Part shown: positions 1 through 46,610 of the stretch, one piece after another
Position numbering within the stretch: position 1 is the stretch's first letter
Layout: the number at the start of each line of letters is the position of its first letter
From: a virus
Lineage: Duplodnaviria > Caudoviricetes
Virus record (IMG/VR): IMGVR_UViG_3300024319_000502
Span: 2,042-66,041 of that record
Direction: 5' to 3' (one strand)
Length of the DNA stretch: 64,000 bases
The notes under the pieces: model-generated
What the model saw: the letters and a program-made list of their open reading frames with translations, nothing else
Told to the model about the DNA's origin: nothing
Databases searched by the model: none
Position numbers and translations under genes: made by a program

Positions 1-1167
1 CATCCTAACGACAAACAAGATTTATTAAACAAAGTGTTTGCTCAGATTGAAATGGGAGATCCTACAAAAAACAAAGAATACAGTCAATGGTTGGCACGTA
101 TGTATTCAAAACAAATTATTCCATTAGAAGACATTAAGAGTAAAATGAGAGATGCACTAGAAAAGTATGCGACTCTCAAGTTAAGAAAGAAACTAAAGCC
201 TGAACACAAAGACATTAATCAAATGAAAAAGCCAGTTGACTTGTTAACAGCAATGGCAGATTACAGTGAAGAAGACTTAGAAGCACCTGTTACAGACAGA
301 GGTAGCAGTCGTGAAATATATCGTGACAGTGAGATTAGAGTTATAGTGCCTAAAGACAAAGCGGCGGCTTGTTATTATGGGCAAGGTACTAAATGGTGTA
401 CTGCGGCACGTAGTAACAATATGTTTGATCAGTATCACAAGATGGGCGATATGTATATCATTATGCCTAATAAACCTAAGTACGAGGGTGAAAAGTATCA
501 GTTCCATTTCCAAAGTGGACAGTTTATGGACGAGCAAGATCGTGAAGTAGATATGTACAAGGTACTAAAAGTGTATCCAACAATACGTAATATTAAAACA
601 ATAACTGATTGGGCTAAACGTAAAATTGTACCAGCACTGATGAGTGATGAAGATTATGCTGAGTGGAAAAAAGAAACCGATGAGCAGATAGTTAGAAATC
701 GTGTAATGTACGGTGATATGTATACTCTAAGTTTAAATCAACCTGGAACTTCATTAGACACCTGGAAGATTAGTCGTAGTACCATTGACATGTTAGTTGA
801 AAAGAGTATGATGAAAGGCAACAGTTGGGCAAATCTAGCAGGTACAGAATACATAGCCTACGGTTGGTTTGACGCAACAAGTGATGATTGTTTAGGTTTA
901 ACATATGCTGAACTAGGTGAAGAACCAGAATCAGCAGTTCTTACAGTTAGTAGTGTTGATTTTGAAAAGGCTGAGGAATTAAGTAATGAGCCTGAAGTTG
1001 AGAAATTAGAAAAATTCTTAAAAGGTATGGTACGAATAGAAGATGAAGCTCAAACGAGTAGTTTAGCTGAAGAACAGTATGAGAAAGCGATTAACCAACT
1101 GTTAGATAGTTATGGTTATCCAATGTCAGTAACAGGATACGTAGGTGGGGAGCCAGAGAGAGCATAA
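1..1167 (+). CDS. PcfJ-like domain protein (CYYGxGTxWCTA motif), 5'-truncated by the window edge
   Basis: Frame is open from base 1 (HPNDKQDLLNKVF...). Contains AACYYGQGTKWCTAARSNNMF. Paralog of 1559..2776. The PcfJ-like label is from motif recall. Confidence 0.6.
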   Translation, partial: HPNDKQDLLNKVFAQIEMGDPTKNKEYSQWLARMYSKQIIPLEDIKSKMRDALEKYATLKLRKKLKPEHKDINQMKKPVDLLTAMADYSEEDLEAPVTDRGSSREIYRDSEIRVIVPKDKAAACYYGQGTKWCTAARSNNMFDQYHKMGDMYIIMPNKPKYEGEKYQFHFQSGQFMDEQDREVDMYKVLKVYPTIRNIKTITDWAKRKIVPALMSDEDYAEWKKETDEQIVRNRVMYGDMYTLSLNQPGTSLDTWKISRSTIDMLVEKSMMKGNSWANLAGTEYIAYGWFDATSDDCLGLTYAELGEEPESAVLTVSSVDFEKAEELSNEPEVEKLEKFLKGMVRIEDEAQTSSLAEEQYEKAINQLLDSYGYPMSVTGYVGGEPERA

Positions 1168-1562
1168 TGAGATTTTATGAAATAATTAGAGAAGGTGAGG
1201 ACGATGCTGGCTGGTATCGTGGCATTAGTAAACAAGAAGCTGATAATATTAGACGAGGTGGATTACCTAAGCCTAGTGCTGTTCCAATACCAATGGACAA
1301 TGAAGTAATGGATCACTTAGGTATTGATGATGAAGAAGCATGGGAACTACAGAAAGAGCTTGAAGGACAAGACGTTATTAATGTTACCAGTGATCAACAA
1401 AACGCAGAAGGCTATGGCGATGAAGTACTATGGTTTGAACGTCATCTAGTAGATTTAGATTTTAAACCCTATGGTGTTATAAGCCTAAGTATGTTAGAAG
1501 GGAACCCAGGTAGTTGGGGACTAGTTACACCTTGGGATGAACAAGTAAAGGAAATAAAATGA
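1167..1562 (+). CDS. Small probable head-packaged protein, possible ADP-ribosyltransferase fold
   Basis: N-terminus MRFYEIIRE. WYRG ... VTSD ... AEGYG pattern resembles the R-S-E ART core. Confidence 0.4.
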   Translation: MRFYEIIREGEDDAGWYRGISKQEADNIRRGGLPKPSAVPIPMDNEVMDHLGIDDEEAWELQKELEGQDVINVTSDQQNAEGYGDEVLWFERHLVDLDFKPYGVISLSMLEGNPGSWGLVTPWDEQVKEIK

Positions 1563-2776
1563 GAGCAAGACATTTTATAATAGAATACGATAGAGCCAAA
1601 ACAGCACAGGCATTTGCCGCCAAGCTAGTTAATACTGCTATGGCTGACAACACTGTTCCAGGCGCTGTTAGAAAAAATATACAGGACAACTTAACTCCTG
1701 TAGAAGCCGCTGAGATGATACTTAAAAATCAAATTGAAGTGGGTGATCCTACTAAACAGAAAAAGTATACACAGACACTTGCTCGTATGTATGCCAATGG
1801 TTTAATCAAATGGGAAGACATAGGTAGTACAATGCGTGACTATTTGGGCAAGTTTCACAAACTAAATCTTAAAAAGATGATTCCAGCACCACGCAACGAT
1901 TTTAATCGCTATAGTGATCTAGCTGACTTCTATAGTGTAGTTGACGAATATCCAGACCCAGATGTTTCAGATCCCAAGTCAAAAGGTGATGCCAAAGAAG
2001 TCTACAAGGATGCTAATGTTCGTGTTATAAGACCTGATGATGAGAATGCCGCTTGTTACTATGGACAAGGCACACGCTGGTGTACTGCCGCAAAAAGCAA
2101 TAACATGTTTACTCGTTATCAGAATGACGGTGATATGTATATCTTAATACCTACCAAAGCCACCCATGACGGTGAGAAATATCAAGTACATCCTGCGTCA
2201 GGACAATACATGGACGAACAGGATCGTGACGTAGAAGCAGACGACTTAATACAACGCTTTGGTGACGACTTTAGAGAGTGGTGGTTAACTGTTGACCCAG
2301 ACCTAGGTGGACGTATAATATTTTTCCCTAATGAAGATGAACTTAGAAAAGCCTGTGAAGAAATTAAACAGATGAGTTTAGAATTCTTAGATGAAGTTAT
2401 GATGGATTGGGAAATGAGTGATGACACATATTATGAGTATCTTCGAGACGAGGGCTATGTTGATGAAGAAGGTGATTATAAAGATGATTATCCTTCATAC
2501 ACAGAATACAATGATTCTGCTAGTGCGTATTATAGCAATGTTTACGGTGCCCTTGATATAACTGTCGATGAAGTGCGTGAGCTAGCTAGAGATATAGAAG
2601 AAGAAGATGGACGTAACCAGTACATAGGCGATTTAGAAAATGTGTTTAGTATTAGTGTAGAAAACGCAATAGATAGACAAGATGGATTACCAACTACAAT
2701 ATACAGACAGATACAGGTAACACTCAAAGACGGTAAAATAACTGTAGAGTACGTTCCAGAACCAGCAAAAGATTAA
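1559..2776 (+). CDS. PcfJ-like domain protein, paralog of the first ORF, with acidic C-terminal domain
   Basis: AACYYGQGTRWCTAAKSNNMF and GEKYQxHxxSGQxMDEQDRxV are shared with ORF 1..1167. N-terminus MRARHFIIE. Confidence 0.6.
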   Translation: MRARHFIIEYDRAKTAQAFAAKLVNTAMADNTVPGAVRKNIQDNLTPVEAAEMILKNQIEVGDPTKQKKYTQTLARMYANGLIKWEDIGSTMRDYLGKFHKLNLKKMIPAPRNDFNRYSDLADFYSVVDEYPDPDVSDPKSKGDAKEVYKDANVRVIRPDDENAACYYGQGTRWCTAAKSNNMFTRYQNDGDMYILIPTKATHDGEKYQVHPASGQYMDEQDRDVEADDLIQRFGDDFREWWLTVDPDLGGRIIFFPNEDELRKACEEIKQMSLEFLDEVMMDWEMSDDTYYEYLRDEGYVDEEGDYKDDYPSYTEYNDSASAYYSNVYGALDITVDEVRELARDIEEEDGRNQYIGDLENVFSISVENAIDRQDGLPTTIYRQIQVTLKDGKITVEYVPEPAKD

Positions 2777-2815
2777 TAAATACTAGTATAATACACTCTA
2801 TAGGAAGTTTTTATT

Positions 2816-3142
2816 ATGGCTGAAGATAAAAAAGTTACAGTCCAAGCAACAGAACACAAGAAAAAAGTTAATTTAGAACTAGAAGTAGATGCTACAGCAA
2901 AAGATCTAGGTGTTAATCCTTATGCAAATTGGGTACACATGGCTAAAGCTGTTGACAGTTGGAGAATCTTTCCAAGACTATTCTTAACTGTCTACATTAT
3001 TTTATTATATAAATGTGTAATATGGTATATGGATTTACCAGCACCTACAATGGAACAGTCAGGTTTAATCAGTATCGTAGTTGGTGCTGGTGCGGCATGG
3101 TTTGGTTTATACACTGGATCCAGCAAAAAGTTTGACAAATAA
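2816..3142 (+). CDS. Small membrane protein with two TM segments
   Basis: Hydrophobic stretches IFPRLFLTVYIILLY and GLISIVVGAGAAWFGLY; AGGA SD upstream. Confidence 0.7.
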   Translation: MAEDKKVTVQATEHKKKVNLELEVDATAKDLGVNPYANWVHMAKAVDSWRIFPRLFLTVYIILLYKCVIWYMDLPAPTMEQSGLISIVVGAGAAWFGLYTGSSKKFDK

Positions 3143-3143
3143 A

Positions 3144-3215
3144 GACACGCTTTAGGACCGTGTTAGGTTTTACCCCTACCTAGAATTACTTCGGAACTAA
3201 TTTAAAAGGGGTCCT
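3144..3215 (+). ncRNA. Candidate structured RNA (three hairpins plus two pseudoknot pairings)
   Basis: Stems GACACG/CGTGTT, TAGGT/ACCTA and AATTA/TAATT (with C-TTCG-G). The 3' AGGGGTCCT is complementary to both loops (ACCCCT and AGGAC). Confidence 0.55.
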
Positions 3216-3223
3216 CACCAAGT

Positions 3224-3231
3224 TATAAATA
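3224..3231 (+). promoter_or_regulatory. T4-type late promoter TATAAATA
   Basis: Exact TATAAATA 5 nt before ATG 3237. Confidence 0.6.
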
Positions 3232-3236
3232 TCGCT

Positions 3237-4022
3237 ATGAGCATCTTATTTGACGCATACAGCGATATTTGTAAATATCCCATCACAAAACATGTACAAC
3301 GTTTAGATCTTGAAATAGATTATAAACGTATTTCTGATGAAATACTTACTCTGCTAGCCGACAACGATTATGGATATGATCCAGTAAGTCTACGGTTACC
3401 CCCTGGAGAAACTGGTTGGACTAATCCTGAAGAAGATTTGATATCTACAGCAGACGGTGTACTAAAGTTTGGCACAAAAAAAGAAACTAATCGTGCTGAC
3501 AATAAGTTATACACTGATTGGCATGAAGGAACAGAATATGTTCAAGAACTCAAAGACAAACTAGAACAACTAAGTGGACTTAATATAGGGCGTGTCAGAT
3601 TAGCCTGGTTACCTGTAGGGTTTGCATATCCTATGCACATTGACTTTGAAGCTATACGCTTTCATGTTCCTATTGTTACTAACGACTATTCCTATTTTAT
3701 AAATGGAAATAATCTAACTACAATGCCTAAAGGTAGTGCATATCACATTATTACAGACGAAATACATACTGCAATGAACTATGGAGGTCTTCCAAGACTG
3801 CATTTAGTATATTCAACATACACAACACCAGAAATAGACCAAGTAATTGATCAAGCAGTTACTGAACTTACTGAAGATCAAACATTTATCAATCATGTTG
3901 ACTTAACAAAAGAACAACTGTTGAAGTTAATTAAAATTAGTTATAAGCAAAATAGAGCAGATAGCGAAACTTTTTTGAAACTAATGAAGATAAATACTTA
4001 CAATGGAAAAACAAGAAATTGA
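3237..4022 (+). CDS. Aspartyl/asparaginyl beta-hydroxylase-like 2OG-Fe(II) oxygenase
   Basis: RVRLAWL..., HID, RFHVPIVTN, IHTAMNYG..RLHLV cupin motifs. Confidence 0.75.
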   Translation: MSILFDAYSDICKYPITKHVQRLDLEIDYKRISDEILTLLADNDYGYDPVSLRLPPGETGWTNPEEDLISTADGVLKFGTKKETNRADNKLYTDWHEGTEYVQELKDKLEQLSGLNIGRVRLAWLPVGFAYPMHIDFEAIRFHVPIVTNDYSYFINGNNLTTMPKGSAYHIITDEIHTAMNYGGLPRLHLVYSTYTTPEIDQVIDQAVTELTEDQTFINHVDLTKEQLLKLIKISYKQNRADSETFLKLMKINTYNGKTRN

Positions 4023-4284
4023 TTTAAAATTTGAAGTTCATTGTGAACAATCACAAGATGATGTTTATAGAACTTACTTAGGTAAACACTTACTGAGTGA
4101 ACGTCATTGGAAATGGGAAACAGACACATACTATCTCTTAGAGATAGCACCAGTAAAATTAAAACCTGGTGAATATGATCTTCGAATTGAAACTGTTAAA
4201 CCTGGCAAAGGCATTTTTAAAATTAAAAATGTACAAGTTAAGGATGCAACGGTACAAAATAAAACAAGGATAGTAGTATCATGA
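4003..4284 (+). CDS. Hypothetical protein
   Basis: ORF in operon context; TAAATA 6 nt upstream of the ATG. Confidence 0.65.
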   Translation: MEKQEIDLKFEVHCEQSQDDVYRTYLGKHLLSERHWKWETDTYYLLEIAPVKLKPGEYDLRIETVKPGKGIFKIKNVQVKDATVQNKTRIVVS

Positions 4285-4691
4285 AAGCAAATGAATTTGT
4301 AAACGAAGAACATTTAGACCATGAAGTTAAAATGGCTAAATCAGAGTTAATGACACTGGCACAAGATTCAGTGCAGTTAGTTAAACTACTTAATAAGTAT
4401 GCTTCAGAAGAACGAGGAATACCAGCTTGGGTAGCTAGTAAAATTACTAAAGCACAAGACTACATTAATTCAGTTCACAAAACATTAACATATGATGCTA
4501 TTGAAGATGGAGAAATATCAGAAGATGCTACAGCCGGTGCAACAGCCGCTGGTAACATTGCTTCAGTTGCTAACCCACACGTAACTAACCCATATCGCAA
4601 AGGCAGTAAGAAACATAAAAAACCTGTCTCTGTAAGTGCATTGGACTCTAAGAACACAAGTATCTTTGGCGGTCCATTAAAGAGACAATAA
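4281..4691 (+). CDS. Probable head-associated protein
   Basis: N-terminus MKANEFVNE (capsid-targeting-like); overlaps the previous stop (ATGA). Confidence 0.55.
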   Translation: MKANEFVNEEHLDHEVKMAKSELMTLAQDSVQLVKLLNKYASEERGIPAWVASKITKAQDYINSVHKTLTYDAIEDGEISEDATAGATAAGNIASVANPHVTNPYRKGSKKHKKPVSVSALDSKNTSIFGGPLKRQ

Positions 4692-4704
4692 AGGAAAAAT
4701 AACA

Positions 4705-6762
4705 ATGATAGTAACAGATCTATTTACAGAATCACGATACGGGGCGGCCGCTGGCGTCGAAACTATTCGACAACTACTTCATGCAGTTAAAGATAGTAAA
4801 GATATAGAGCTTAAAGTTGGTCCAGAACTATTTCCTGTGACATACGGTGATGCTCGTTATTTACTACAATACTTTAAAGCAAACAGAGAAGGTGGTGATG
4901 CTACTGCTGAATATTTTGGTGATGCTAATTGGATTGAAAATATGTTAGCTAAACGTGATTACACTATGAGTCCAGATAGATTAAAAGATATAGACAGCGA
5001 ACGTTTTGCAGAAGGTAAATGTCCTGTTACAGGCGAAGATGAATGTCACTGCAATGATGACAAAGAAATGAACGAAGCTGAGTTTGAAATAACATATAAA
5101 GATCCACAGTTCACTGGCACTAAAACACACACAGTTAAAGCAGTAAATGCCAAAGGGGCAGAACAAAAGTTCCTAAGTTTTGGTAATCCACACAAAGTAT
5201 TAGATGTTAAGAAAAAAGAAAAAGTAGACGAAGCTGACAGGCCTTTACCACAAGACTTTATACCAGAACCTGTAGTAGCACAAACAATAAAAGATCTAGG
5301 ACCAGGATTAGACCCGATGGCTAATGGCTTTTATGACCTAGCATATGGAAAACTACTTAGTAATTATCTAGCACAGAACACTCCTGAAATTAAGAAAAAG
5401 TTTAATGTGAACTGGAATTTAGCGTGGGCAAGTCAAATGAGAGAGCTGTACAGTAGAGAGTACGGTGGCTATATGAAAACACCAGGAAAAGAACCAGTTA
5501 AAGAATATAAACTTGAGCCTAGGGACAAAGAAGACAAACTAGAGAAACTTAAAACTCTAAATGCACTACTAGTTGATCCTAATACATCAAAGGATCCTGA
5601 GCTTAAAAAAGCAATACAAAAGAGAATAACACAACTAAAAGAAGATCCAACTCCTAAACGTAGAATAATGGACTTTGATAGCCATGCACGTTATTGGAGT
5701 GGTAATGGTCAGTACCAAGATGAATATAACCAACTACAAGACAAGCTAGTGCCAGACATGGGTAAAGCGGACACTGTTGAAGGTGAACTATTAAGAGCTG
5801 TAGGTAAAATTATTTACAGACACGGCAATGACGGTGATAACTTTAGTAATAGTTCATATGAGTGGATTGAAAAACATGTAGGTAAGTTTGATCACTTAGA
5901 CGACATGGCAGACAAAGTTATACAATATGTATTAAGTAAGAAAGGTGATTACACCCCAAATAACTTTGATTGGTTAACAGTAGCAGACTACGGCCCAGGT
6001 GAATATGAAAAAGACTGGGAACAAGTAGGTTGTCAAAACTGTGGCGGTACAGGCGAAATAGAATACGAAAACGACGAAGGTGAAGAAGAATACGAAGAGT
6101 GTGATAGCTGTGATGGTAACGGTTGGATTGAACAAACATCAGAAAGCGTTGAGCCAGTTACTGAAGACTATAAAGGTTGGAAGTACGGTGAAGATATAGA
6201 GCAATATGATGATGTTGCTAAAAAGTTTCAATACGCTGAAAAAGATGGCAAAAAAGTAGATATGGATTGGTCACCGTATACAACACCAAGTGATAAAGAA
6301 TTTAAACTATGGGTTGATTTAGGTATGCCAACACGCAAAGCAGTTAACGGTATTGGTCCGTTAGATCATGCAGATTTAGTTGCAATAGCAAAAACTAAAA
6401 AAGGCACTGCTGGGCTATTACAGCAAGAAGCTAAAGAGGAAGAAGACGATCTAGATCAGAAAAAGCTAGATGCTAGAACTAAAATTGCTCTTAAAAAAGC
6501 AGGCTTAAAATACGGTGCACAAACTAAAGGTGATCCGCTAGCAAGTTTAACTACTTTTGTTGCTGATAAGGATTCAGAAAAAACTCAAGATATTGATCGT
6601 TTAGATAAAGAAAACGATGAAGAAGAACGTGATATTGCCGCACAAGCTAAAGTAGACCAAAAGCATAATAAAGAGATTGGCAATAACTCATTGAAAGATC
6701 GTTATCAAGATCAAGAGATTGAAAAGCTCAAGCAAGACTTACAAAAACTACTCAATAGATAA
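4705..6762 (+). CDS. Large modular probable head/internal protein with a DnaJ-type zinc finger
   Basis: N-terminus MIVTDLFTE; CQNCGGTG...CDSCDGNG (two CxxCxGxG); charged coiled-coil C-terminus. Confidence 0.55.
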   Translation: MIVTDLFTESRYGAAAGVETIRQLLHAVKDSKDIELKVGPELFPVTYGDARYLLQYFKANREGGDATAEYFGDANWIENMLAKRDYTMSPDRLKDIDSERFAEGKCPVTGEDECHCNDDKEMNEAEFEITYKDPQFTGTKTHTVKAVNAKGAEQKFLSFGNPHKVLDVKKKEKVDEADRPLPQDFIPEPVVAQTIKDLGPGLDPMANGFYDLAYGKLLSNYLAQNTPEIKKKFNVNWNLAWASQMRELYSREYGGYMKTPGKEPVKEYKLEPRDKEDKLEKLKTLNALLVDPNTSKDPELKKAIQKRITQLKEDPTPKRRIMDFDSHARYWSGNGQYQDEYNQLQDKLVPDMGKADTVEGELLRAVGKIIYRHGNDGDNFSNSSYEWIEKHVGKFDHLDDMADKVIQYVLSKKGDYTPNNFDWLTVADYGPGEYEKDWEQVGCQNCGGTGEIEYENDEGEEEYEECDSCDGNGWIEQTSESVEPVTEDYKGWKYGEDIEQYDDVAKKFQYAEKDGKKVDMDWSPYTTPSDKEFKLWVDLGMPTRKAVNGIGPLDHADLVAIAKTKKGTAGLLQQEAKEEEDDLDQKKLDARTKIALKKAGLKYGAQTKGDPLASLTTFVADKDSEKTQDIDRLDKENDEEERDIAAQAKVDQKHNKEIGNNSLKDRYQDQEIEKLKQDLQKLLNR

Positions 6763-6783
6763 CACAATCCAGTAAATAGCATT

Positions 6784-7668
6784 ATGAAACTAATCTTAAA
6801 AAAAGATAGTTGGAGTAATGCTACGGCATTTTTCCTCGAAGACTTATATCGTAAACACTTTGAATTAAGTACTGATCTAGACGATGAAGGTATTGTATAT
6901 GCACATTGGCAAGATTGGGAGTGGGCAAAAAGTTTAAATAGACCTGCCATCATTGATCACTTATGGGATCCTTGGGGCAATCCAGACATTAAAGATACTG
7001 AATACTTAAAGGTTATACGCAGTGACGGTTGGTTTTGTATTGCTAACGAATGTCTATGGTACCAAGCACTAGGGTACAATCAGTATCAAGCAAAGAATAT
7101 AAACGATCGCACATTTCTTATGTTAATGAATTATCAACGGTTGCATAGAGATCTAATATGGGATAAGATACAGCCGTACTTAGATAATGCACTCTATAGT
7201 TATCAAGATAGAAAAATAACTATTGACGGAGATATTGCTAGAGAAGAAGGTCCGTGGCAAAGATATTTAAATGAGTCATGGTATGACAGAACAGCATTCA
7301 GCCTAGTAGTTGAATCAGATATTGTACCTGGTGTACACAGTGAAAAAGTATTAAAGCCAATGGCTTTCCGACAACCATTTGTAGTATGGGGTCCACAAGG
7401 ATATCTTAAGTGGTTACGTTCCTGGGGATTTGAAACATTCTATGCCGTTGATGAAAGTTATGATGACGAACCTGACAACGAAAAACGATTAGAAATGGTT
7501 ATTAGAGAAGTCAAGCGTTTAATAAAGTTAGGACCTAATCACTTCGATGACGCAAGGACTCAACAAACACTTGACACTAACTATAAAAGATTTTATAATG
7601 TAGAGTGGGCAACTAAACAACTTGAGAAATATTTTGACGAAATCAAACAATATAGCAGTCGTTGGTAA
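6784..7668 (+). CDS. Putative glycosyltransferase-like protein (EKxxKP...GFxTF...DESYD family)
   Basis: SEKVLKPMAFRQPFVVWG...GFETFYAVDESYD is shared with three other ORFs in the window. Confidence 0.55.
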   Translation: MKLILKKDSWSNATAFFLEDLYRKHFELSTDLDDEGIVYAHWQDWEWAKSLNRPAIIDHLWDPWGNPDIKDTEYLKVIRSDGWFCIANECLWYQALGYNQYQAKNINDRTFLMLMNYQRLHRDLIWDKIQPYLDNALYSYQDRKITIDGDIAREEGPWQRYLNESWYDRTAFSLVVESDIVPGVHSEKVLKPMAFRQPFVVWGPQGYLKWLRSWGFETFYAVDESYDDEPDNEKRLEMVIREVKRLIKLGPNHFDDARTQQTLDTNYKRFYNVEWATKQLEKYFDEIKQYSSRW

Positions 7669-8320
7669 TGGCTTAATAGGCAAACGTTTACAAGAGTTTG
7701 TCAATGCCACACACGTATTCAACAGCTTTCAACTGTTTGACTTACCTTTAGAACATTACGACACTGTGTATGTAGCGGCCCCTAGTGGCAATAGAATCTG
7801 GGCAAAAGAAAATCCTCACACAGATCAAGCATCAACAGGTTTGTTAATACGCAACCTATTAGTAACTAAGTGCGATCGTATAGTGTTAATATCAACAGGT
7901 GATACTCAAGCAAGACCCGATACTGGTTACGGAAAGAATAGACTAGAATTAGAAAATGCAGTTCGTGGACGTTTTGAAAATCATTATGTTATACGCTTAC
8001 CTGGACTTATTGGTAATGATATTACTAAAAACATCTTATATGATATCAAACATAAAACAGAATGGGTAGATAAAATCAACGGGGCTATTAAACAACAGTG
8101 GTATCCATTAGATGATCTAAAGCACGATATTCCTAAAATAATCAATGGTGATGAAAGAGTCGTTAATCTAGTCAGCGAGCCTATTCTAAATCAAAACATT
8201 GTTAATCAATTCAGCGACACAACTGATGTCAACTTTGAATCAGCAGTTGATTATAATCTAAAACCATACAAGTATACCAAGGAACAGATCTTTGAGCAAA
8301 TCAGTTTATATATGCGGTGA
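7622..8320 (+). CDS. NAD-dependent epimerase/dehydratase-like protein
   Basis: GNGLIG Rossmann motif, LIST, YGKNR, IRLPGLIG. Confidence 0.75.
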   Translation: MRNILTKSNNIAVVGNGLIGKRLQEFVNATHVFNSFQLFDLPLEHYDTVYVAAPSGNRIWAKENPHTDQASTGLLIRNLLVTKCDRIVLISTGDTQARPDTGYGKNRLELENAVRGRFENHYVIRLPGLIGNDITKNILYDIKHKTEWVDKINGAIKQQWYPLDDLKHDIPKIINGDERVVNLVSEPILNQNIVNQFSDTTDVNFESAVDYNLKPYKYTKEQIFEQISLYMR

Positions 8321-8885
8321 TAGCTTTTACTGTAGTGATCATGACTCAATTATAGTACCTTGGCACGAACAGTTTGAACGTACTAGTTTGGCACAGGTAT
8401 GTGCTAGTAATTTATTAATTAGTCTACAAGTTGAACAAGCTATTGAGAAACAAGCTGACTTTATTATTGTAGGATTTACTAGTAGCCTAAGAAGTGAACT
8501 AATGTTTGAAGATAAGCTAGTTCCATTTAGTTGGCTTAGCTTAGATGAAACAACACCATTTGACCAAACAACCATCAATAATTTAAAACAGCTATTTAAT
8601 AACATTGATCTCGATACAGAAGTTAAAAGAAACAAATTAGTAATAGAAGCTACTCTACAAAAGCTAGTAGATTCAAAAATAGCTTTCTTGTTTGATCAAG
8701 GTGGCTTTGAACACAAAAGCTATGAGGGAGTTGGAGAATATTTTACCAAATACGATCAATATAGGTCACGAGTATGTCTGTGGGATCATGCAGATGTTCG
8801 AACACACAGACCTTACTTTCATATAACTGACCAAACAGTACATACACAGATAAGTGATTATTATACCAAAATAATTGGCCTTTAG
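8292..8885 (+). CDS. SGNH/GDSL-like protein
   Basis: ICGDSF at the N-terminus; C-terminal FH....H. Confidence 0.55.
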   Translation: MSKSVYICGDSFYCSDHDSIIVPWHEQFERTSLAQVCASNLLISLQVEQAIEKQADFIIVGFTSSLRSELMFEDKLVPFSWLSLDETTPFDQTTINNLKQLFNNIDLDTEVKRNKLVIEATLQKLVDSKIAFLFDQGGFEHKSYEGVGEYFTKYDQYRSRVCLWDHADVRTHRPYFHITDQTVHTQISDYYTKIIGL

Positions 8886-8931
8886 TTTACAATCATATAT
8901 AATAGTAGCACATAATAAGGAGAAGTAGACA

Positions 8932-9195
8932 ATGTCAGATTCAATTACATTTAGCGGCGATCAAAAAGCTAAACTAACACAACTAGTTAACGAAGGCATG
9001 CAGGTCATGCGTGAAGTTGAAACGCTCAACGAAGGTCTTAGAGATACTGTCAAAGCTGTGGCAGAAGAGCTACAGATCAAACCTAGTATTTTAAATAAAG
9101 CAATTAAGATTGCACATAAAGCTGACTTTACAAGAGAACAACAAGATCATCAACTACTAGAAGATATTTTATCAACAGTTGGTCATACTCTTTAA
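8932..9195 (+). CDS. Double-stranded DNA-binding protein (T4 DsbA / GapR-like)
   Basis: Short helical protein with LRDTVKAVAEELQIKPSILNKAIKIAHK; strong AGGAG SD. Confidence 0.6.
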   Translation: MSDSITFSGDQKAKLTQLVNEGMQVMREVETLNEGLRDTVKAVAEELQIKPSILNKAIKIAHKADFTREQQDHQLLEDILSTVGHTL

Positions 9196-9477
9196 TTGCA
9201 ACAAGTTAAAGACTTTTGGATCAAAAGCTATCGTTCAGATCCTGTTGCATTTGGATTTGAACTAACTAGTTTTATTTTTACTGTTATAGCTAGCATAATA
9301 CTAGCCGACACAGCAAATGAACCAAACATGCTTATTGTGTATCCTGGATTTTTTGTAGGCAGTATAACAGGAGCATACGCATATTATCGCAGAGGACTAG
9401 CTTGGCCATTAGTGCTAACAAGTTACTTTGCTGTGGTAAATATATTTGGATACGGAGTTGCCAGCTATTGGTGGTAA
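9196..9477 (+). CDS. Small three-TM membrane protein, paralog of 40297..40593
   Basis: Hydrophobic; YRSDPVAFGFELTS aligns with WRSHPVRFVIEVIA. Confidence 0.65.
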   Translation: MQQVKDFWIKSYRSDPVAFGFELTSFIFTVIASIILADTANEPNMLIVYPGFFVGSITGAYAYYRRGLAWPLVLTSYFAVVNIFGYGVASYWW

Positions 9478-9484
9478 CGGTTTC

Positions 9485-9533
9485 GCAGGCCTAACCTGCA
9501 TGTAGAAGGTAGATCAGCCATAAGTGATCGGAG
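9485..9533 (+). promoter_or_regulatory. Two-hairpin leader abutting an SD (possible translational operator)
   Basis: GCAGG-cctaa-CCTGC and GATCA-gccataag-TGATC directly followed by GGAG. Confidence 0.4.
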
Positions 9534-9538
9534 AAAAG

Positions 9539-10168
9539 ATGCACAGAATACATCGATATAGATGGCCAAATCACCCAATGGGTACATGCTTTATACGGCA
9601 GAGTGACCAATTGGTATACATCAACATTCCTAAAAATGCAACAGAATATACTAAACTGTTATTTGATGGCACTCTAACAAACTTCTACGAAAACGCTATA
9701 CCTGAAGACTATAGATATCTAATAGTGTTACGCAACCCAATTGAACGATGGTACAGTGGACTATGCGAATACGTCCAACGTTATACAACAATTAACTCAG
9801 ACAGCGATGTGTTTGATCAATTTGATACATTAAAAATATTAACTACTGCAGGTGCTAACGACGAGCATACTGAATTGCAATTACGCTTTATAGCCGGATT
9901 ACCGAGTAAGAATGCTATATTTTTTAATTTCGATAACAGTTTTACTACTAATCTAACAGATTGGTTTGATCAAAACAACGTAGCATATCCACAATCACTC
10001 AGTGGTAAGAAAAGAAATGTTACAGAACAACAGTGGGTTACCCTTAGAAACAGAATAAAAAAACATGTGGAAGGTAATACTGAATTACTTGAGTCACTGA
10101 ATGAATATTTAAAACTTGACATCAAGTTATATAATAGTGTACAATACTATATTAAAGGAGAAAAATGA
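9539..10168 (+). CDS. Sulfotransferase family protein
   Basis: YINIPKNATE (PAPS 5' loop) and VLRNPIERWYSG (3' PB motif); start chosen after the GGAG SD. Confidence 0.75.
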   Translation: MHRIHRYRWPNHPMGTCFIRQSDQLVYINIPKNATEYTKLLFDGTLTNFYENAIPEDYRYLIVLRNPIERWYSGLCEYVQRYTTINSDSDVFDQFDTLKILTTAGANDEHTELQLRFIAGLPSKNAIFFNFDNSFTTNLTDWFDQNNVAYPQSLSGKKRNVTEQQWVTLRNRIKKHVEGNTELLESLNEYLKLDIKLYNSVQYYIKGEK

Positions 10169-12822
10169 GTTACATAGACGCATATTTTGATAGGCAAGGA
10201 GATAAGATACACGTCGTAGAGCGTAAAAACGGTGAGCGTGTGTTTCAAACGTATCCTGCTGAATTTGTGTTTTACTATGAAGATCCAAAAGGCAAGCAAA
10301 AATCAATTCACGGAGATAAAGTAACTAGGTTTAAAACTCATAACTCAAAAGAGTTTCACAAAGAATTACGTATTAACAGCGATCGTAAACTGTTTGAAAG
10401 TGATATTAATCCTGTATTCCGCTGTTTAGCAAATAATTATATAGGACAAGACGCTCCTGAACTTAATGTAGCATTTTTTGATATTGAGGTAGACTTTGAT
10501 CCTGAGAGAGGATATTCAAGTCCAGCAGATCCATTTAATCCTATAACAGCTATATCAGTATATTGCACTTGGTTAAGCAAAATGGTTACTCTAGTACTAC
10601 CGCCTAAGTCAATGAGCAACGAAGAAGCTGAAGCAACCTGTGCAAAGTTTTCAGATACTTTCTTATTCAATAGTGAAGGGGAAATGCTACAAGCGTTCTT
10701 AGGAATAATAGAAGATGCTGATATATTGTCAGGGTGGAACTCAGAGGGGTATGATATACCATACTGTGTTAATCGCATTACTAGAGTGCTTAGTAAAGAC
10801 GACACACGCCGGTTCTGCTTATTTAAACAGCTACCTAAGAAGCGTACATTTGAACGCTTTGGTGCAGAGAACATTACATTTGATCTTATTGGTCGTGTGC
10901 ATATGGATTATATGCAACTGTACAGAAAGTATACATATGAAGAAAGACATAGTTATTCATTAGATGCTATTGGTGAGCATGAACTACAAGAACGTAAAAC
11001 ACCATATGAAGGTACACTGGATCAACTGTACAACAATGACTTTGAAACGTTTATTGAATACAATAGACAAGATACTTTACTGCTTAAAAAATTAGACGAT
11101 AAACTAAGATTCTTAGATCTAGCAAATGAACTAGCACACGCAAATACAGTGCTACTGCAAACAACAATGGGTGCTGTAGCTGTTACAGAACAAGCTATTA
11201 TTAATGAAGCTCATGAACGTGGCATGGTAGTTCCTAATAGACGAGAAAGACTAACTGATGAAGACACACAGGCCGCAGGTGCTTATGTAGCATTTCCGCA
11301 AAAAGGACTGCATGATTACATTGGATCCGTTGATATTAACTCACTATATCCAAGTGCTATTCGTGCATTAAACATGGGTAACGAAACTATCATTGGACAA
11401 CTACGTCCTATAATGACTGATAGATATATCAAAGAAAAACAAAGCAAAGGGAAATCATTTGCATCAGCATGGGAAGGACTGTTTGGATCATTAGAATATG
11501 AAGCAGTCATGGCAAAAGAAATAGGTACTGAAATAACTATTGATTGGAACACTGGTGAAGAAAGTGTACACTCAGGTGCTGATATATGGAAGATGATATT
11601 TGATAGCAACAGACCCTGGTTGCTGACTGCCAATGGTACAATATTTACTAATGAAGTAGAAGCTGTGGTTCCTGGCTTACTTAAACGATGGTATGCTGAA
11701 CGTAAAGAACTACAAGCAAAACTACGCAATGCAACAGACAAAAAAGAGATAGAGTTTTGGGATAAGCGACAGCTAGTTAAGAAGATTAACTTGAACTCAC
11801 TGTATGGTGCTATTCTTAATCCAGGTTGTAGATTCTTTGATAAACGTATTGGGCAATCAACTACGCTGACAGGTCGTGCTATTGCTAAACATATGGATGC
11901 ACATATCAATGAACTAATCACAGGTGAGTATGATCATACTGGTAAAGCAATTATATATGGCGATACAGATTCATGTTACTTTAGTGCATATCCGACATTG
12001 AAAGATGATATTGAAGCAGGTCGTATGGAATGGTCAAAAGATATTGCTATACAACTATATGATACAATATCAGATTCAGTAAATGACAGTTTTCCAGGCT
12101 TTATGGAAAAAGCATTTCATTGTCCCAAGGAGCAAGGTAGTATTATCAGAGGCGGTCGTGAGATTGTAGCATACAAAGGATTGTTTATTACTAAGAAACG
12201 CTATGCTGTTATGATATATGACAACGAAGGCAAGCGTTTAGATACTGAAGGTAAGCCAGGTAAAATTAAGGCTATGGGCTTAGATTTGAAACGTTCAGAT
12301 ACTCCGCCTGTTATTCAAAACTTTTTAAGTGACGTGTTGCATAATGTACTAACAGGTGCTGGCAAAGAACAAGTAACAGAACAAATCTTGCAATTCAAAC
12401 ATGAATTTAGAGAGCGTCCAGGATGGGAAAAGGGTACTCCTAAGCGTGTTAATAACTTAACAAAGTATACTAAAGAAGAAAAACGTTTAGGTAAAGCTAA
12501 CATGCCAGGGCACGTTAGAGCAGGTATGAATTGGAATACTATGCGTAGAATGAATTCAGACAAGTATAGTTTACAATGTATTGACGGTATGAAAATTATT
12601 GTATGTAAGTTAAAGTCAAATCCACTAGGTTGGACATCAATAGGATATCCTACAGATGAAACACACATACCACAATGGTTTAAGGAGTTACCGTTTGATA
12701 ACGAATTAATGGAAGCCACTATTGTTGACAACAAAGTCGACAACCTATTAGGTGGACTAGACTGGAACTTGGCGGCCGCAACACAGACTGCTAATACTTT
12801 TAATAACTTATTTGAATTTTAA
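10165..12822 (+). CDS. Family B DNA polymerase with 3'-5' exonuclease
   Basis: FFDIEVD (ExoI), GWNSEGYDIPY (ExoII), YNRQD (ExoIII), DINSLYPS, KINLNSLYG, YGDTDS, KKRY. Confidence 0.97.
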   Translation: MSYIDAYFDRQGDKIHVVERKNGERVFQTYPAEFVFYYEDPKGKQKSIHGDKVTRFKTHNSKEFHKELRINSDRKLFESDINPVFRCLANNYIGQDAPELNVAFFDIEVDFDPERGYSSPADPFNPITAISVYCTWLSKMVTLVLPPKSMSNEEAEATCAKFSDTFLFNSEGEMLQAFLGIIEDADILSGWNSEGYDIPYCVNRITRVLSKDDTRRFCLFKQLPKKRTFERFGAENITFDLIGRVHMDYMQLYRKYTYEERHSYSLDAIGEHELQERKTPYEGTLDQLYNNDFETFIEYNRQDTLLLKKLDDKLRFLDLANELAHANTVLLQTTMGAVAVTEQAIINEAHERGMVVPNRRERLTDEDTQAAGAYVAFPQKGLHDYIGSVDINSLYPSAIRALNMGNETIIGQLRPIMTDRYIKEKQSKGKSFASAWEGLFGSLEYEAVMAKEIGTEITIDWNTGEESVHSGADIWKMIFDSNRPWLLTANGTIFTNEVEAVVPGLLKRWYAERKELQAKLRNATDKKEIEFWDKRQLVKKINLNSLYGAILNPGCRFFDKRIGQSTTLTGRAIAKHMDAHINELITGEYDHTGKAIIYGDTDSCYFSAYPTLKDDIEAGRMEWSKDIAIQLYDTISDSVNDSFPGFMEKAFHCPKEQGSIIRGGREIVAYKGLFITKKRYAVMIYDNEGKRLDTEGKPGKIKAMGLDLKRSDTPPVIQNFLSDVLHNVLTGAGKEQVTEQILQFKHEFRERPGWEKGTPKRVNNLTKYTKEEKRLGKANMPGHVRAGMNWNTMRRMNSDKYSLQCIDGMKIIVCKLKSNPLGWTSIGYPTDETHIPQWFKELPFDNELMEATIVDNKVDNLLGGLDWNLAAATQTANTFNNLFEF

Positions 12823-35982: not shown

Positions 35983-36176
35983 TACACATACAAAGATTCT
36001 TAGATAGAATAAAGTTTTTACAACAGCAAAATTCAAAAGAATATACTGTGTCAATGCACGAAGCACGAAATCTACACATGGACATTACCAAATTACTGTT
36101 AGAATTAAAAAAATATCAAGATGGTACGAGCAGTGATGAAGCAATTAGTGTAGAAGTAAAAGGCGAAGACTTTTAA
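35979..36176 (+). CDS. Small hypothetical protein
   Basis: ATGA-coupled ORF. Confidence 0.65.
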   Translation: MIHIQRFLDRIKFLQQQNSKEYTVSMHEARNLHMDITKLLLELKKYQDGTSSDEAISVEVKGEDF

Positions 36177-36248
36177 CCCCACGTAATCATTAACTACCTA
36201 GTTAATTTGATAAATAATAGTACAATATTATTCAGGTAAATTAACATA

Positions 36249-36909: not shown

Positions 36910-37641
36910 CCAGCGAGCTAACTTAAAAGTAACCAATAGCTGACAGTACCAATACCCTATATCAAATTCAAACCAACGCACTGCAAAGTTTCTGCGTGAT
37001 GCATCATTGTGATGATTAGTATGAAGTTCTTCTCCGCCTAATAGAACTGCAACAGGAAATACTATCTTACTTTGATCTTTGCCGGTACTTGCATAATTAA
37101 AACCAATTTTATGTATGACCCACTTACCGACAAATGTAATAAACATATTGTGAAATAAAGCATATACTACAGCAACAGCAAAACCAGTGACTCCAAATAA
37201 CAATGTTTGAATAACTATGTGTATCCATAATCCTAAATTAGGAAACTTCCAAAAGACATGTTCTAATGTATCATTGTGTATAGCAACATTACCTGCATAC
37301 TTTTCATATTCTTCTTTACTAATATAATGATCGCTTTCAGGTAACATATGTGTATTAGCATCTGACAGTTCTTTAAATGTTTGATGTACTGGACTATGTG
37401 GGTCGTTTTTTAAATCTGAATATCTATGGTGTTTTCTATGATGTGTAGCATAGTGTTTTGCCCAACCTGGCCAGTTAAATGCTACTGTTGCCCATAACCA
37501 AAATCTAAATAATCCTTCAACTACAGGATTAAATTTTATATAAGAATGTGCGATTGCTCTATGTACATATATACTCTGAATAGCTACTGTAATATGCCAT
37601 ACAACAATAAAATCAATAATAAAAAGGGTTAAGTTGAACAT
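36904..37641 (-). CDS. Membrane fatty-acid desaturase (second copy)
   Basis: HRAIAH, HRKHH, DPHSP, GEELHTNHH, WFEFDIG; start moved to MFNLTLF. Confidence 0.9.
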   Translation of the reverse strand: MFNLTLFIIDFIVVWHITVAIQSIYVHRAIAHSYIKFNPVVEGLFRFWLWATVAFNWPGWAKHYATHHRKHHRYSDLKNDPHSPVHQTFKELSDANTHMLPESDHYISKEEYEKYAGNVAIHNDTLEHVFWKFPNLGLWIHIVIQTLLFGVTGFAVAVVYALFHNMFITFVGKWVIHKIGFNYASTGKDQSKIVFPVAVLLGGEELHTNHHNDASRRNFAVRWFEFDIGYWYCQLLVTFKLARWL

Positions 37642-37646
37642 GATAA

Positions 37647-37679
37647 TATTTATGCCCACAGATACCTGGTGTATAAATA
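37647..37679. promoter_or_regulatory. Back-to-back divergent late promoters
   Basis: TAAATA on - (37652-37647) and TATAAATA on + (37672-37679), each 5 nt from an ATG. Confidence 0.65.
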
Positions 37680-37684
37680 CTGGC

Positions 37685-38344
37685 ATGAAACAATTCACCT
37701 CTTGGAATCCGGACTGGCGCTATACTAAATTCAACATAGATTGTCTGAAGGAAATTCAACAAGAATTTTTAAATGTTCGTAAACTAATTTGGCATAAACA
37801 TAGTGATCAAAACTTAGAGGATCCAGATCCATCCTGGTGGGACTTTTCAATGATGCCAAGACAAGAACTTGAGCCGTTGGTTCCTACATTAGCTAATTGG
37901 TTTAAAAGTAAAGGTATATTAGATAAGTGGTCATCAACAGCTTTTGCTGTAGTTAATAAATCTAGTAATCCAATGGATATTCATGTAGACAGCACTGTTA
38001 TTGATGTTAGAAGATATAGTTTAAATATGCCTTTTATAAACTGCGACAATACCTGGACTGTATGGTACGATGCAGATGTAGATCAAACACGACTGCCAAC
38101 TGACATACCTCCTGAAGTATTACACTCGAGATTTAAATATGATCCAACGTTGAGATTTGGGCTATGGTATCAAGAACAAACTGCAACAGAAATAGATCGT
38201 GCTGAAATGGATTCGCCAGTAATAATAAACATCACTGTGCCACATAGACCCGTTAGTGGACACGAAGATACACGTATTTTACTATGTCATAGATTTACTC
38301 CTGAACTTACAACCGAAGAGGTATTAACTATATGCAACCAATAA
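37685..38344 (+). CDS. Cupin / 2OG-Fe(II) oxygenase-like protein
   Basis: IHVD, SLNMP, VPHRP...R motifs. Confidence 0.6.
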   Translation: MKQFTSWNPDWRYTKFNIDCLKEIQQEFLNVRKLIWHKHSDQNLEDPDPSWWDFSMMPRQELEPLVPTLANWFKSKGILDKWSSTAFAVVNKSSNPMDIHVDSTVIDVRRYSLNMPFINCDNTWTVWYDADVDQTRLPTDIPPEVLHSRFKYDPTLRFGLWYQEQTATEIDRAEMDSPVIINITVPHRPVSGHEDTRILLCHRFTPELTTEEVLTICNQ

Positions 38345-46534: not shown

Positions 46535-46610
46535 GCTGGCATAGCTCAGTTGGTAGAGCAACGCACTTGTAATGCGTAGGTCCTCAGTTCGAATCCGAGT
46601 GCCAGCACCA
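46535..46610 (+). tRNA. tRNA-Thr(UGU)
   Basis: 76 nt cloverleaf: acceptor GCTGGCA/TGCCAGC, anticodon arm ACGCA-CTTGTAA-TGCGT, TTCGAAT loop, encoded CCA. Confidence 0.95.

Follow-up and report, generated by a model that had tools for sequence, protein, structure and literature searches.

A conserved pseudoknotted RNA element, a candidate for a new family, between a stop codon and a promoter-like motif in marine phages

The stretch of viral DNA considered here (64,000 nucleotides (nt) of the IMG/VR record IMGVR_UViG_3300024319_000502, Duplodnaviria; Caudoviricetes; hereafter the window) makes up most of a 66-kb virus record whose completeness is estimated at 19%. Close to its start, a + strand spacer of 94 nt (3143-3236) lies between the stop codon of a small gene encoding 108 amino acids (aa) and the ATG of a gene encoding 261 aa, and it holds the element that is the subject of this report, a hairpin and a pseudoknot followed by a G-poor tail (Table 1). 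The element is richer in G and C than its surroundings (0.44 in 3144-3214, against 0.36 for the whole window), as had been claimed in an earlier reading made from the letters of the window alone (the sequence-only reading), which took the locus for an unclassified functional RNA. That description is upheld by compensatory changes, invariant loops and the lack of an Rfam match. Comparison of its variants indicates that the element is a real, conserved RNA structure of narrow distribution, as yet unclassified, and a candidate new RNA family with covariation backing every helix.

Table 1. Coordinates of the element, its parts and the neighbouring features in the window
Feature	Position	Strand	Details
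Promoter-like motif AATAAATA	2775..2782	+	33 nt before the ATG of the small gene, which has an AGGAAG Shine-Dalgarno sequence
Upstream open reading frame (ORF), 108 aa	2816..3142	+	Small protein phrog_10198; stop codon 3140-3142
P1 hairpin	3144..3164	+	Stem 3145-3149/3159-3163 plus G3144-T3164 wobble; 9-nt loop
P1 loop, invariant TTAGGAC	3152-3158	+	From variant comparison
P2 (pseudoknot stem 1)	3164..3182	+	TAGGT 3164-3168/ACCTA 3178-3182; its loop carries the 5' strand of the pseudoknot helix
Pseudoknot helix, 5' strand ACCCCT	3172..3177	+	Abuts the P2 3' strand (0-nt spacer); 3 nt (3169-3171) after the P2 5' strand
P3 hairpin in pseudoknot loop 3	3183..3203	+	AATTA 3184-3188/TAATT 3198-3202 plus G3183-T3203 wobble
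P3 loop CTTCGGAAC	3189-3197	+	Invariant GGAAC at 3193-3197
A-rich linker before pseudoknot 3' strand	3203-3206	+	
Pseudoknot helix, 3' strand AGGGGT	3207..3212	+	Within AGGGGTCCT, 3207-3215
G-poor tail	3213..3236	+	Conserved ACC 3217-3219; TATAAATA 3224-3231
Start-codon hairpin	3227..3270	+	AAATATCGCT 3227-3236/AGCGATATTT 3261-3270 (10-bp inverted repeat); ATG 3237-3239 in the loop
Downstream ORF, 261 aa	3237..4022	+	Weak Asp/Asn beta-hydroxylase (cupin) match

All of the parts named in the sequence-only reading (P1, P2, P3, ACCCCT, AGGAC and the 3' strand) were found in place, AGGAC lying at 3154-3158 in the P1 loop and T3164 being claimed by P1 as well as by P2. Judged from the aligned variants, the element is a module of about 70 nt in which the P1 hairpin precedes an H-type pseudoknot of the classical kind; the second helix of the pseudoknot has 6 bp and is rich in G and C, and P3 occupies the third loop. 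The strands of P2 and of the pseudoknot helix interleave (alignment columns 21-25/35-39 and 29-34/66-71, respectively) and both helices are backed by comparison; loop 1 measures 2-3 nt, and no nucleotide separates the 5' strand of the second stem from the 3' strand of the first. P1 begins 0-2 nt after the stop codon in every variant.

The comparison was made on an alignment (A6) of six rows with four distinct cores, namely those of the window, of the homologous locus L089 and of two groups of loci that we call the L091 and L096 types. The rows were aligned by a covariance model, R1, built from the L091 type on P1, the loop-2/3'-strand helix and P3 with P2 omitted, and were scored on a pseudoknotted structure that includes P2. 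Standard pairs fill 97.5% of the 80 pair cells, and 10 of the 22 pairs are changed on both sides, one of them (in P1) being an alignment artefact. The values observed were reached by none of 500 shuffles, and when the partners are slid by 1-3 columns the paired fraction falls to 27-53%. The four helices contribute as follows: 1) the pseudoknot helix is paired in 100% of its cells, is perfect in all four cores and shows compensatory changes at four of its six pairs, its versions being ACCCCT/AGGGGT (window), GACCCT/AGGGTC (L091 type), GACCCC/GGGGTC (L096 type) and GCCCTT/AAGGGC (L089); 2) P2 lies outside R1 yet covaries (90% of cells paired, two of five pairs double-changed, 4-5 pairs kept), with a G-C to C-G change in L089, an outer U-A to A-U change, and U-G wobbles in L096 and L089; 3) P3 is 100% paired, as AATTA/TAATT with a 9-nt loop in most variants and in L089 as AATTATT/AATAATT, seven pairs long, with a loop of 7 nt; 4) in P1 the window and the L091 type have ACACG/CGTGT, and L089 and the L096 type have ACAA...TTGT, lengthened on the inside by TCCTA paired with TAGGA. 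The loop segments TTAGGAC (P1) and GGAAC (P3) are invariant in all variants.

RNAalifold, given A6, arrives at the second helix and P3 on its own. The cores of the window and L089 are 64.5% identical, less than the 70% found at third codon positions of the neighbouring gene, and all helices hold. On the + strand, three cells are U-G or G-U and none is A-C, which points to a + strand RNA rather than to double-stranded DNA or the - strand. A structured RNA read from one sequence has in this way gained the backing of related phage contigs, where its helices are kept through compensatory changes.

Two details of the first description have to be given up. It had counted two nested pseudoknots, the second between AGGAC of the P1 loop and GTCCT; this pairing is peculiar to the window, other variants having GTCAC or GGCAC (at most three pairs), and in the window itself the GT of GTCCT is already used by the first pseudoknot. 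Since AGGAC/GTCCT is not conserved, there is one conserved pseudoknot and not two. The C(UUCG)G tetraloop assigned to P3 is likewise not a conserved trait, the corresponding sequences being CCTCGG in the L096 type and CTGG in L089.

Thirteen syntenic copies of the element are known, with the four core sequences described above; tails give two further versions. A search with R1 returned 13 matches at an expectation value (E) of 0.01 or below, all on the + strand and all syntenic (13 of 57 sources). Homologues were found through the downstream 261-aa gene, in two viral and 12 metagenome contigs. Two of the 12 begin inside that gene and the other ten carry the element, which in nine of these ten stands directly 5' of the 261-aa gene (truncated by the contig end in L095); the L094 contig starts 1 nt before the element, and R1 still matches the element whole. 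The L091 type also comprises L093, L094, L098, L100 and L090, with L001 and L095 partial; L097 and L002 belong to the L096 type. The variants are mosaics: in L098 a 5' part of the L091 type is followed by a tail of the L096 type, and L089 combines a window-type flanking gene and an L096-type P1 with a core of its own. In L090 the element and its tail are undisturbed, and an insertion exactly at the ATG behind them adds an ORF of 344 aa (449-1483), after which the 261-aa gene follows with a TAAATG overlap; the rest of L090 is 96-98% identical to L091. Upstream, the position of the small gene is held in L091, L096, L098 and L090 by an ORF of 108-111 aa that gives no BLASTP alignment to the 108-aa ORF of the window. 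As the upstream gene differs and L090 carries a downstream insertion, the module holds its position, and both of its neighbours can change.

The upstream small-gene family is very common in marine viral contigs (399 loci, of which 80 were retrieved), and the element was seen by eye in the 150 nt after the small-gene homologue in none of these 80, the next gene abutting or another spacer being present; R1, run at E up to 10 on 42 of them that have only the upstream-gene homologue, found it in none. A gapped motif pattern hit 29 loci in viral contigs, one of them a known contig and the other 28 without a real match. In the cellular genome collection there was no exact P3 match and no real match among 20 gapped-pattern loci, and a blastn search of 2700-4100 against a phage collection gave no match. 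Three exact P3-pattern matches in viral contigs lie inside an unrelated coding region and were set aside. Within the 66-kb record and a 39.5-kb record the element occurs once each. It was found at none of five loci reached via a 405-aa gene further upstream, the closest of which (L153 and L154, 85% identical) also lack the small gene and the 261-aa gene. The spacer after the 405-aa gene in L153 (3718-3803, the same in L154) holds a hairpin with a TAGGACCG loop and then TAGG...CCTAG, P1/P2-like by eye. The likeness is not significant: models R1 and R2 are silent on it at E up to 10 and blastn finds a 9-mer alone (E 1.7).

No Rfam family accounts for the element. Scanned with Rfam 15 at gathering score, the whole window gives a tRNA (46535-46607, 72.4 bits) as sole match, and at E up to 10 over 3000-3400 nothing appears on the + strand within 3144-3215. 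The one overlapping row is on the - strand (3198-3277, Lig_thermometer), at 21.4 bits against a cut-off of 51.5 (E 0.77). The same database, searched at E up to 5 with L089, L090, L091 and L096, gave no match at the element. The covariance search agrees with the sequence-only reading, which could assign the RNA to none of pistol, twister, hammerhead or hepatitis delta virus (HDV) ribozymes. ARAGORN found no gene in 3000-3400 and no tRNA-clan covariance model matched there, so the element is not tRNA-like. A consensus scan for intrinsic terminators over 1-12000 reported no site in 3140-3240. Literature searches returned no description of the element, although the motif may already be listed in a published catalogue (PMC10690425) with 10,006 candidates for structured viral RNAs.

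The nearest known RNA by architecture is the preQ1-II riboswitch (RF01054), which shares an upstream accessory hairpin, an H-type pseudoknot with an embedded loop-3 hairpin, a purine-rich 3' strand and a size of about 70-80 nt. Membership of that family is contradicted by model match, Shine-Dalgarno position and gene context: there is no covariance match at E up to 10, the 3' strand, which stands 24 nt before the ATG, is no Shine-Dalgarno sequence, the next gene is cupin/oxygenase-like rather than a queuosine-precursor transporter, and the hosts of the element are marine phages, not Lactobacillales. The leader pseudoknot of T4 gene 32 acts in translational autoregulation. It resembles the present element as an H-type pseudoknot of a phage mRNA with an unstructured A/U-rich stretch up to the start codon; it belongs, however, to the gene of a single-strand-binding protein whose binding it nucleates, whereas here the next gene is unrelated and is replaced in L090, and there are two extra hairpins with conserved loops. 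With the 3'-terminal and intercistronic mRNA stabilisers and terminator hairpins of bacteria and phages, such as repetitive extragenic palindromic (REP) stem-loops and intrinsic terminators, the element shares its place directly after a stop codon, and RNA contigs end at its 3' edge with a higher depth upstream than downstream. It differs from them in having a pseudoknot and invariant loops instead of a stable G/C hairpin, in lacking a U-tract and in its modest predicted stability. As no U-tract follows, it is not a canonical intrinsic terminator.

Promoter-like motifs frame the locus. ATAAATA occurs seven times on the + strand of the window (2776, 3225, 3990, 36210, 37673, 39921 and 43680) and twice on the - strand; all seven + strand copies stand upstream of a + gene start, at distances of 5, 5, 6, 32, 33, 36 and 116 nt. 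Copies at 5-6 nt precede genes without a Shine-Dalgarno sequence, and at 32-36 nt a leader is present. From this distribution ATAAATA is likely a promoter motif of the phage. A T4-type late promoter would recur upstream of genes on the coding strand and be accompanied by a gp55-type late sigma factor; the recurrence of the motif (7/7) would suit such a promoter. Near the element, ATAAATA ends 5 nt before the ATG at 3237, and the 3' part of the element overlaps its promoter-like region; the placing of the element between a stop codon and a late promoter, proposed from the sequence, is therefore reasonable. A -35-like TTTAAA (3201-3206) lies 17 nt upstream of TATAAA in the window, and in the variants TTTAAA or TTGAAC lies 15-17 nt 5' of TATAAA, overlapping the linker between P3 and the second helix. 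The exact 8-mer in the tail (Table 1), however, has only two occurrences in the 64 kb. Shine-Dalgarno sequences precede about 30 of 70 ORF starts and are absent before the 261-aa gene. The motif upstream of the small gene is kept in the window, L089, L091, L002 and L098, about 33 nt ahead of an ATG that has a Shine-Dalgarno sequence. AT-rich promoters from which transcription begins 6 nt past the consensus are reported for phiKZ-related giant phages (PMC5312081).

The start-codon hairpin, probably outside the element proper, is weakly supported: it has a 6-bp core in all six rows (83% of cells paired), and a single compensatory pair, G-C to C-G, links the leader to codon 9. The idea of a small RNA transcribed from a promoter of its own was rejected, since the TTGACA at 3132-3137 lacks a -10 partner and does not occur in the L091 type. 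Stop-codon read-through of the 108-aa ORF was likewise discarded, the next stop following after seven codons.

Several other arrangements of this kind were seen. In relatives (L015, L020, L043, L047, L066, L069, L070 and others), TTGACA-17-TATAAT ends 5-7 nt before the ATG of a DnaJ-like gene that follows the small-gene homologue, a spacing that suggests leaderless transcripts for these DnaJ-like early genes. Promoters abut start codons both in the window and in such relatives, so leaderless transcripts are probably a feature of this group of phages. At 37641-37685 of the window, divergent ORFs are 43 nt apart, each with TAAATA 5 nt before its ATG, leaving room only for leaderless transcripts or for promoters within the opposite gene. 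At 36176-36216, a 6-bp A/T hairpin (ATTAAC/GTTAAT) follows a stop codon directly before ATAAATA, a simpler layout of structure and then promoter. A perfect TTGACA-17-TATAAT is found at 7571-7599, inside the 3' end of the ORF at 6784-7668. L023, L027, L033, L034, L036, L037 and L045 have another conserved spacer of about 70 nt after the small-gene homologue and before the DnaJ-like gene, in which a hairpin AAGGAT...ATCCTT carries an AAGGAGG Shine-Dalgarno sequence in its loop.

Among the sequencing runs listed, 16 contain at least half of the sampled words; six runs are recorded as RNA, and four RNA runs were compared, as contigs. In run X16 one contig covers 2804-3211 with no differences and the next covers 3260-3686, at depths of 7.3 upstream and 4.4 downstream. 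In X15 the first contig covers 2907-3208, again with no differences, and the next 3262-3613, at 15.1 upstream and 3.4 downstream. At the break both runs are free of loose ends, and 3212-3259 is uncovered, a weak hint given that these are contigs. The X16 contig runs from about 15-20 nt past the small gene's ATAAATA into the 3' strand of the second helix, where it ends; both runs resume right at the 3' arm of the start-codon hairpin. This pattern fits a discrete small-gene transcript that ends at or just after the pseudoknot, with a new start near 3237, if the contig ends are RNA ends, as we infer.

These observations lead us to favour, tentatively, a reading in which the element is a 3'-end module of the upstream transcript, either forming that end or protecting it. 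The small-gene transcript would start at the ATAAATA-type promoter near 2776-2782 and carry the element as its 3'-terminal domain. The folded pseudoknot would stop transcription or, more likely, would hold off 3'-to-5' exonucleases once the tail, poor in G and rich in A and U, has been cut, and the upstream message would thereby gain a defined, stable end insulated from the next transcription unit. That unit would start at or beside the ATG at 3237 from the second ATAAATA, the -35-like region of which extends over the element's 3' part. The invariant loops suggest recognition by a protein or by the polymerase. The sequence-only reading had offered a 3'-protective element as one of its two suggestions, and for this the contig ends at 3208 and 3211 in two runs offer a weak hint.

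A number of points weigh against this reading. The minimum free energy of the window's element is no better than that of dinucleotide shuffles (z +0.19 for 3144-3215 and +0.55 for 3140-3240; the - strand fold, at z -0.06, is likewise no better), and the folds of relatives are moderately stable (z -1.3 to -3.5, against mononucleotide shuffles). No U-tract stands behind any helix, the RNA sequence following the last one being CCTCACCAAG. The invariant loops and the pseudoknot exceed what a simple exonuclease block would need, and the covariation comes from just four distinct cores in an alignment fitted to three of the four helices. The RNA data are assembled contigs and not reads, with neither strand nor true ends; X15 and X16 may come from the same campaign, and other parts of the gene also have gaps owing to low depth. 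Moreover, an L089-like contig in X17 extends 45 nt upstream of the ATG, across the tail into the 3' strand of the pseudoknot, at a depth upstream of the ATG (11, against 17-21 in the gene body) that is gene-like, which means that either read-through RNA or contaminating DNA exists there. Finally, the start-codon hairpin, the left arm of which lies upstream of the proposed start, has a compensatory pair, a hint of transcripts that contain the tail.

These last points lead to the strongest rival, somewhat unlikely in our estimate, in which the element is a cis-regulatory leader on read-through transcripts. As an aptamer, binding a protein or a small ligand, it would control the translation of the next gene or the read-through into it. 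The switch would consist either in the P2 5' strand exchanging its own partner for the ACC(U) of the tail or in the start-codon hairpin. Covarying stems, a pseudoknot and the invariance of loops and linkers together recall a riboswitch, the element precedes whichever gene follows, be it that of 261 aa or, in L090, that of 344 aa, and the tail and ATG are covered by the X17 contig. Minimum free energy folds do join the P2 5' strand to ACC(U) in five of six variants, but in L089 this pairing is uncompensated whereas P2 itself is compensated; the core of the start-codon hairpin, in turn, is present in 6/6 rows with its one compensatory pair. On the other side, no known riboswitch model matches, the purine-rich 3' strand at 24 nt from the ATG is beyond Shine-Dalgarno range, and the X15 and X16 contigs break between element and gene. 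If transcription starts at the ATG, as the spacing of ATAAATA suggests, the element would stand outside the main mRNA of the gene it is supposed to control.

Two further proposals give the invariant loops a part to play. It is unlikely, in our judgement, that the element represents a new class of pseudoknotted RNA signals with a biochemical activity of its own, being either a U-tract-free 3'-end signal for the polymerase that uses ATAAATA or a ligand or protein switch on read-through into a leaderless gene; the UUAGGAC and GGAAC loops would then serve as the recognition surface. A protein- or ribosome-binding RNA, possibly a small RNA released from the 3' untranslated region, that titrates or recruits a dimeric binder of the CsrA/Rsm kind appears quite unlikely. 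Such a binder would find two loops that are alike (CUUUAGGAC and CUUCGGAAC), each with GGA and about 39 nt apart, as in CsrA/Rsm sponges and operators, with TTAGGAC and GGAAC invariant while the stems vary, at the 3' end of a short transcript that is abundant in RNA libraries. The GGA of P1, displayed in the loop in the window and the L091 type, is however paired within the extended stem in L089 and the L096 type, and the pseudoknot is given no role. The 66-kb record has no detectable CsrA gene and none of the RNA polymerase subunit domains PF00562 and PF00623, absences that tell little for a record 19% complete.

A role at the level of DNA is improbable, whether as a site at which an operator or activator function is exerted on the neighbouring promoter or as a conserved cassette that is a recombination hot spot for gene shuffling. 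T4-type promoter-stem-loop cassettes are mobile and mediate gene shuffling, and the present locus is like them in setting a conserved intergenic RNA structure and a phage promoter at a boundary of gene replacement, as seen in the L090 insertion and the differing upstream genes. It is unlike them in being single-copy in the 66-kb and 39.5-kb records rather than repeated, in placing the structure upstream of the promoter and in having a promoter of the ATAAATA kind. A DNA role would be in keeping with the mosaic variants L098 and L089, with the L090 insertion falling exactly at the edge of the module and with the reach of the element's 3' part into the -35-like stretch of the promoter that follows. 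Against it, a dimeric DNA binder would not tolerate the shift of P3 from 5 bp with a 9-nt loop (window) to 7 bp with a 7-nt loop (L089), wobble pairs are confined to the + strand, and four distinct, always complementary versions of the pseudoknot helix fit RNA pairing and not a fixed protein site.

Least likely of all, and very improbable in our view, is the other suggestion of the sequence-only reading, a self-cleaving ribozyme, which found no support. It would have to be of a new class, and its cut, close to the pseudoknot's 3' edge, would give the upstream RNA its 3' end. Size, a compact pseudoknotted fold with invariant unpaired nucleotides, contig ends at 3208 and 3211 in two runs and a phage genome, where small self-cleaving ribozymes are often found, would suit it, but at E up to 10 there is no match to hammerhead, twister, twister-sister, pistol, hatchet, HDV or any other Rfam model, the helix strands follow one another in a different order than in pistol and HDV, and a 5'-hydroxyl product from about 3213 should be covered, whereas contigs resume only at 3260-3262, which a new start at about 3237 fits better.

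The 261-aa protein matches PF05118 at E 0.0049, below the cut-off, and has invariant H134, D136 and H177 (H-x-D...H), from which it is probably a cupin-type 2-oxoglutarate oxygenase. Further on, a 685-aa protein (4705-6762) gives a weak match to a DnaJ-type zinc finger. Of the 26 window ORFs scanned against PHROGs, 15 had no match at all and none was recognised as a T4-like protein; the idea of a T4-like phage thus finds no support in PHROGs.

Very little is known about the signals that govern gene expression in large uncultured marine phages, and this locus offers a compact example of how such a phage may mark the boundary of a transcription unit, with a pseudoknotted RNA after a stop codon and a promoter-like motif abutting an ATG that lacks a Shine-Dalgarno sequence. 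If our preferred reading of the element as a 3'-end module is right, 3' ends would be formed or protected without a U-tract, and the element would be a new kind of 3'-end element and possibly a transcript-stabilising part; if it should instead sense a ligand or a protein, it would represent a new class of regulatory RNA.

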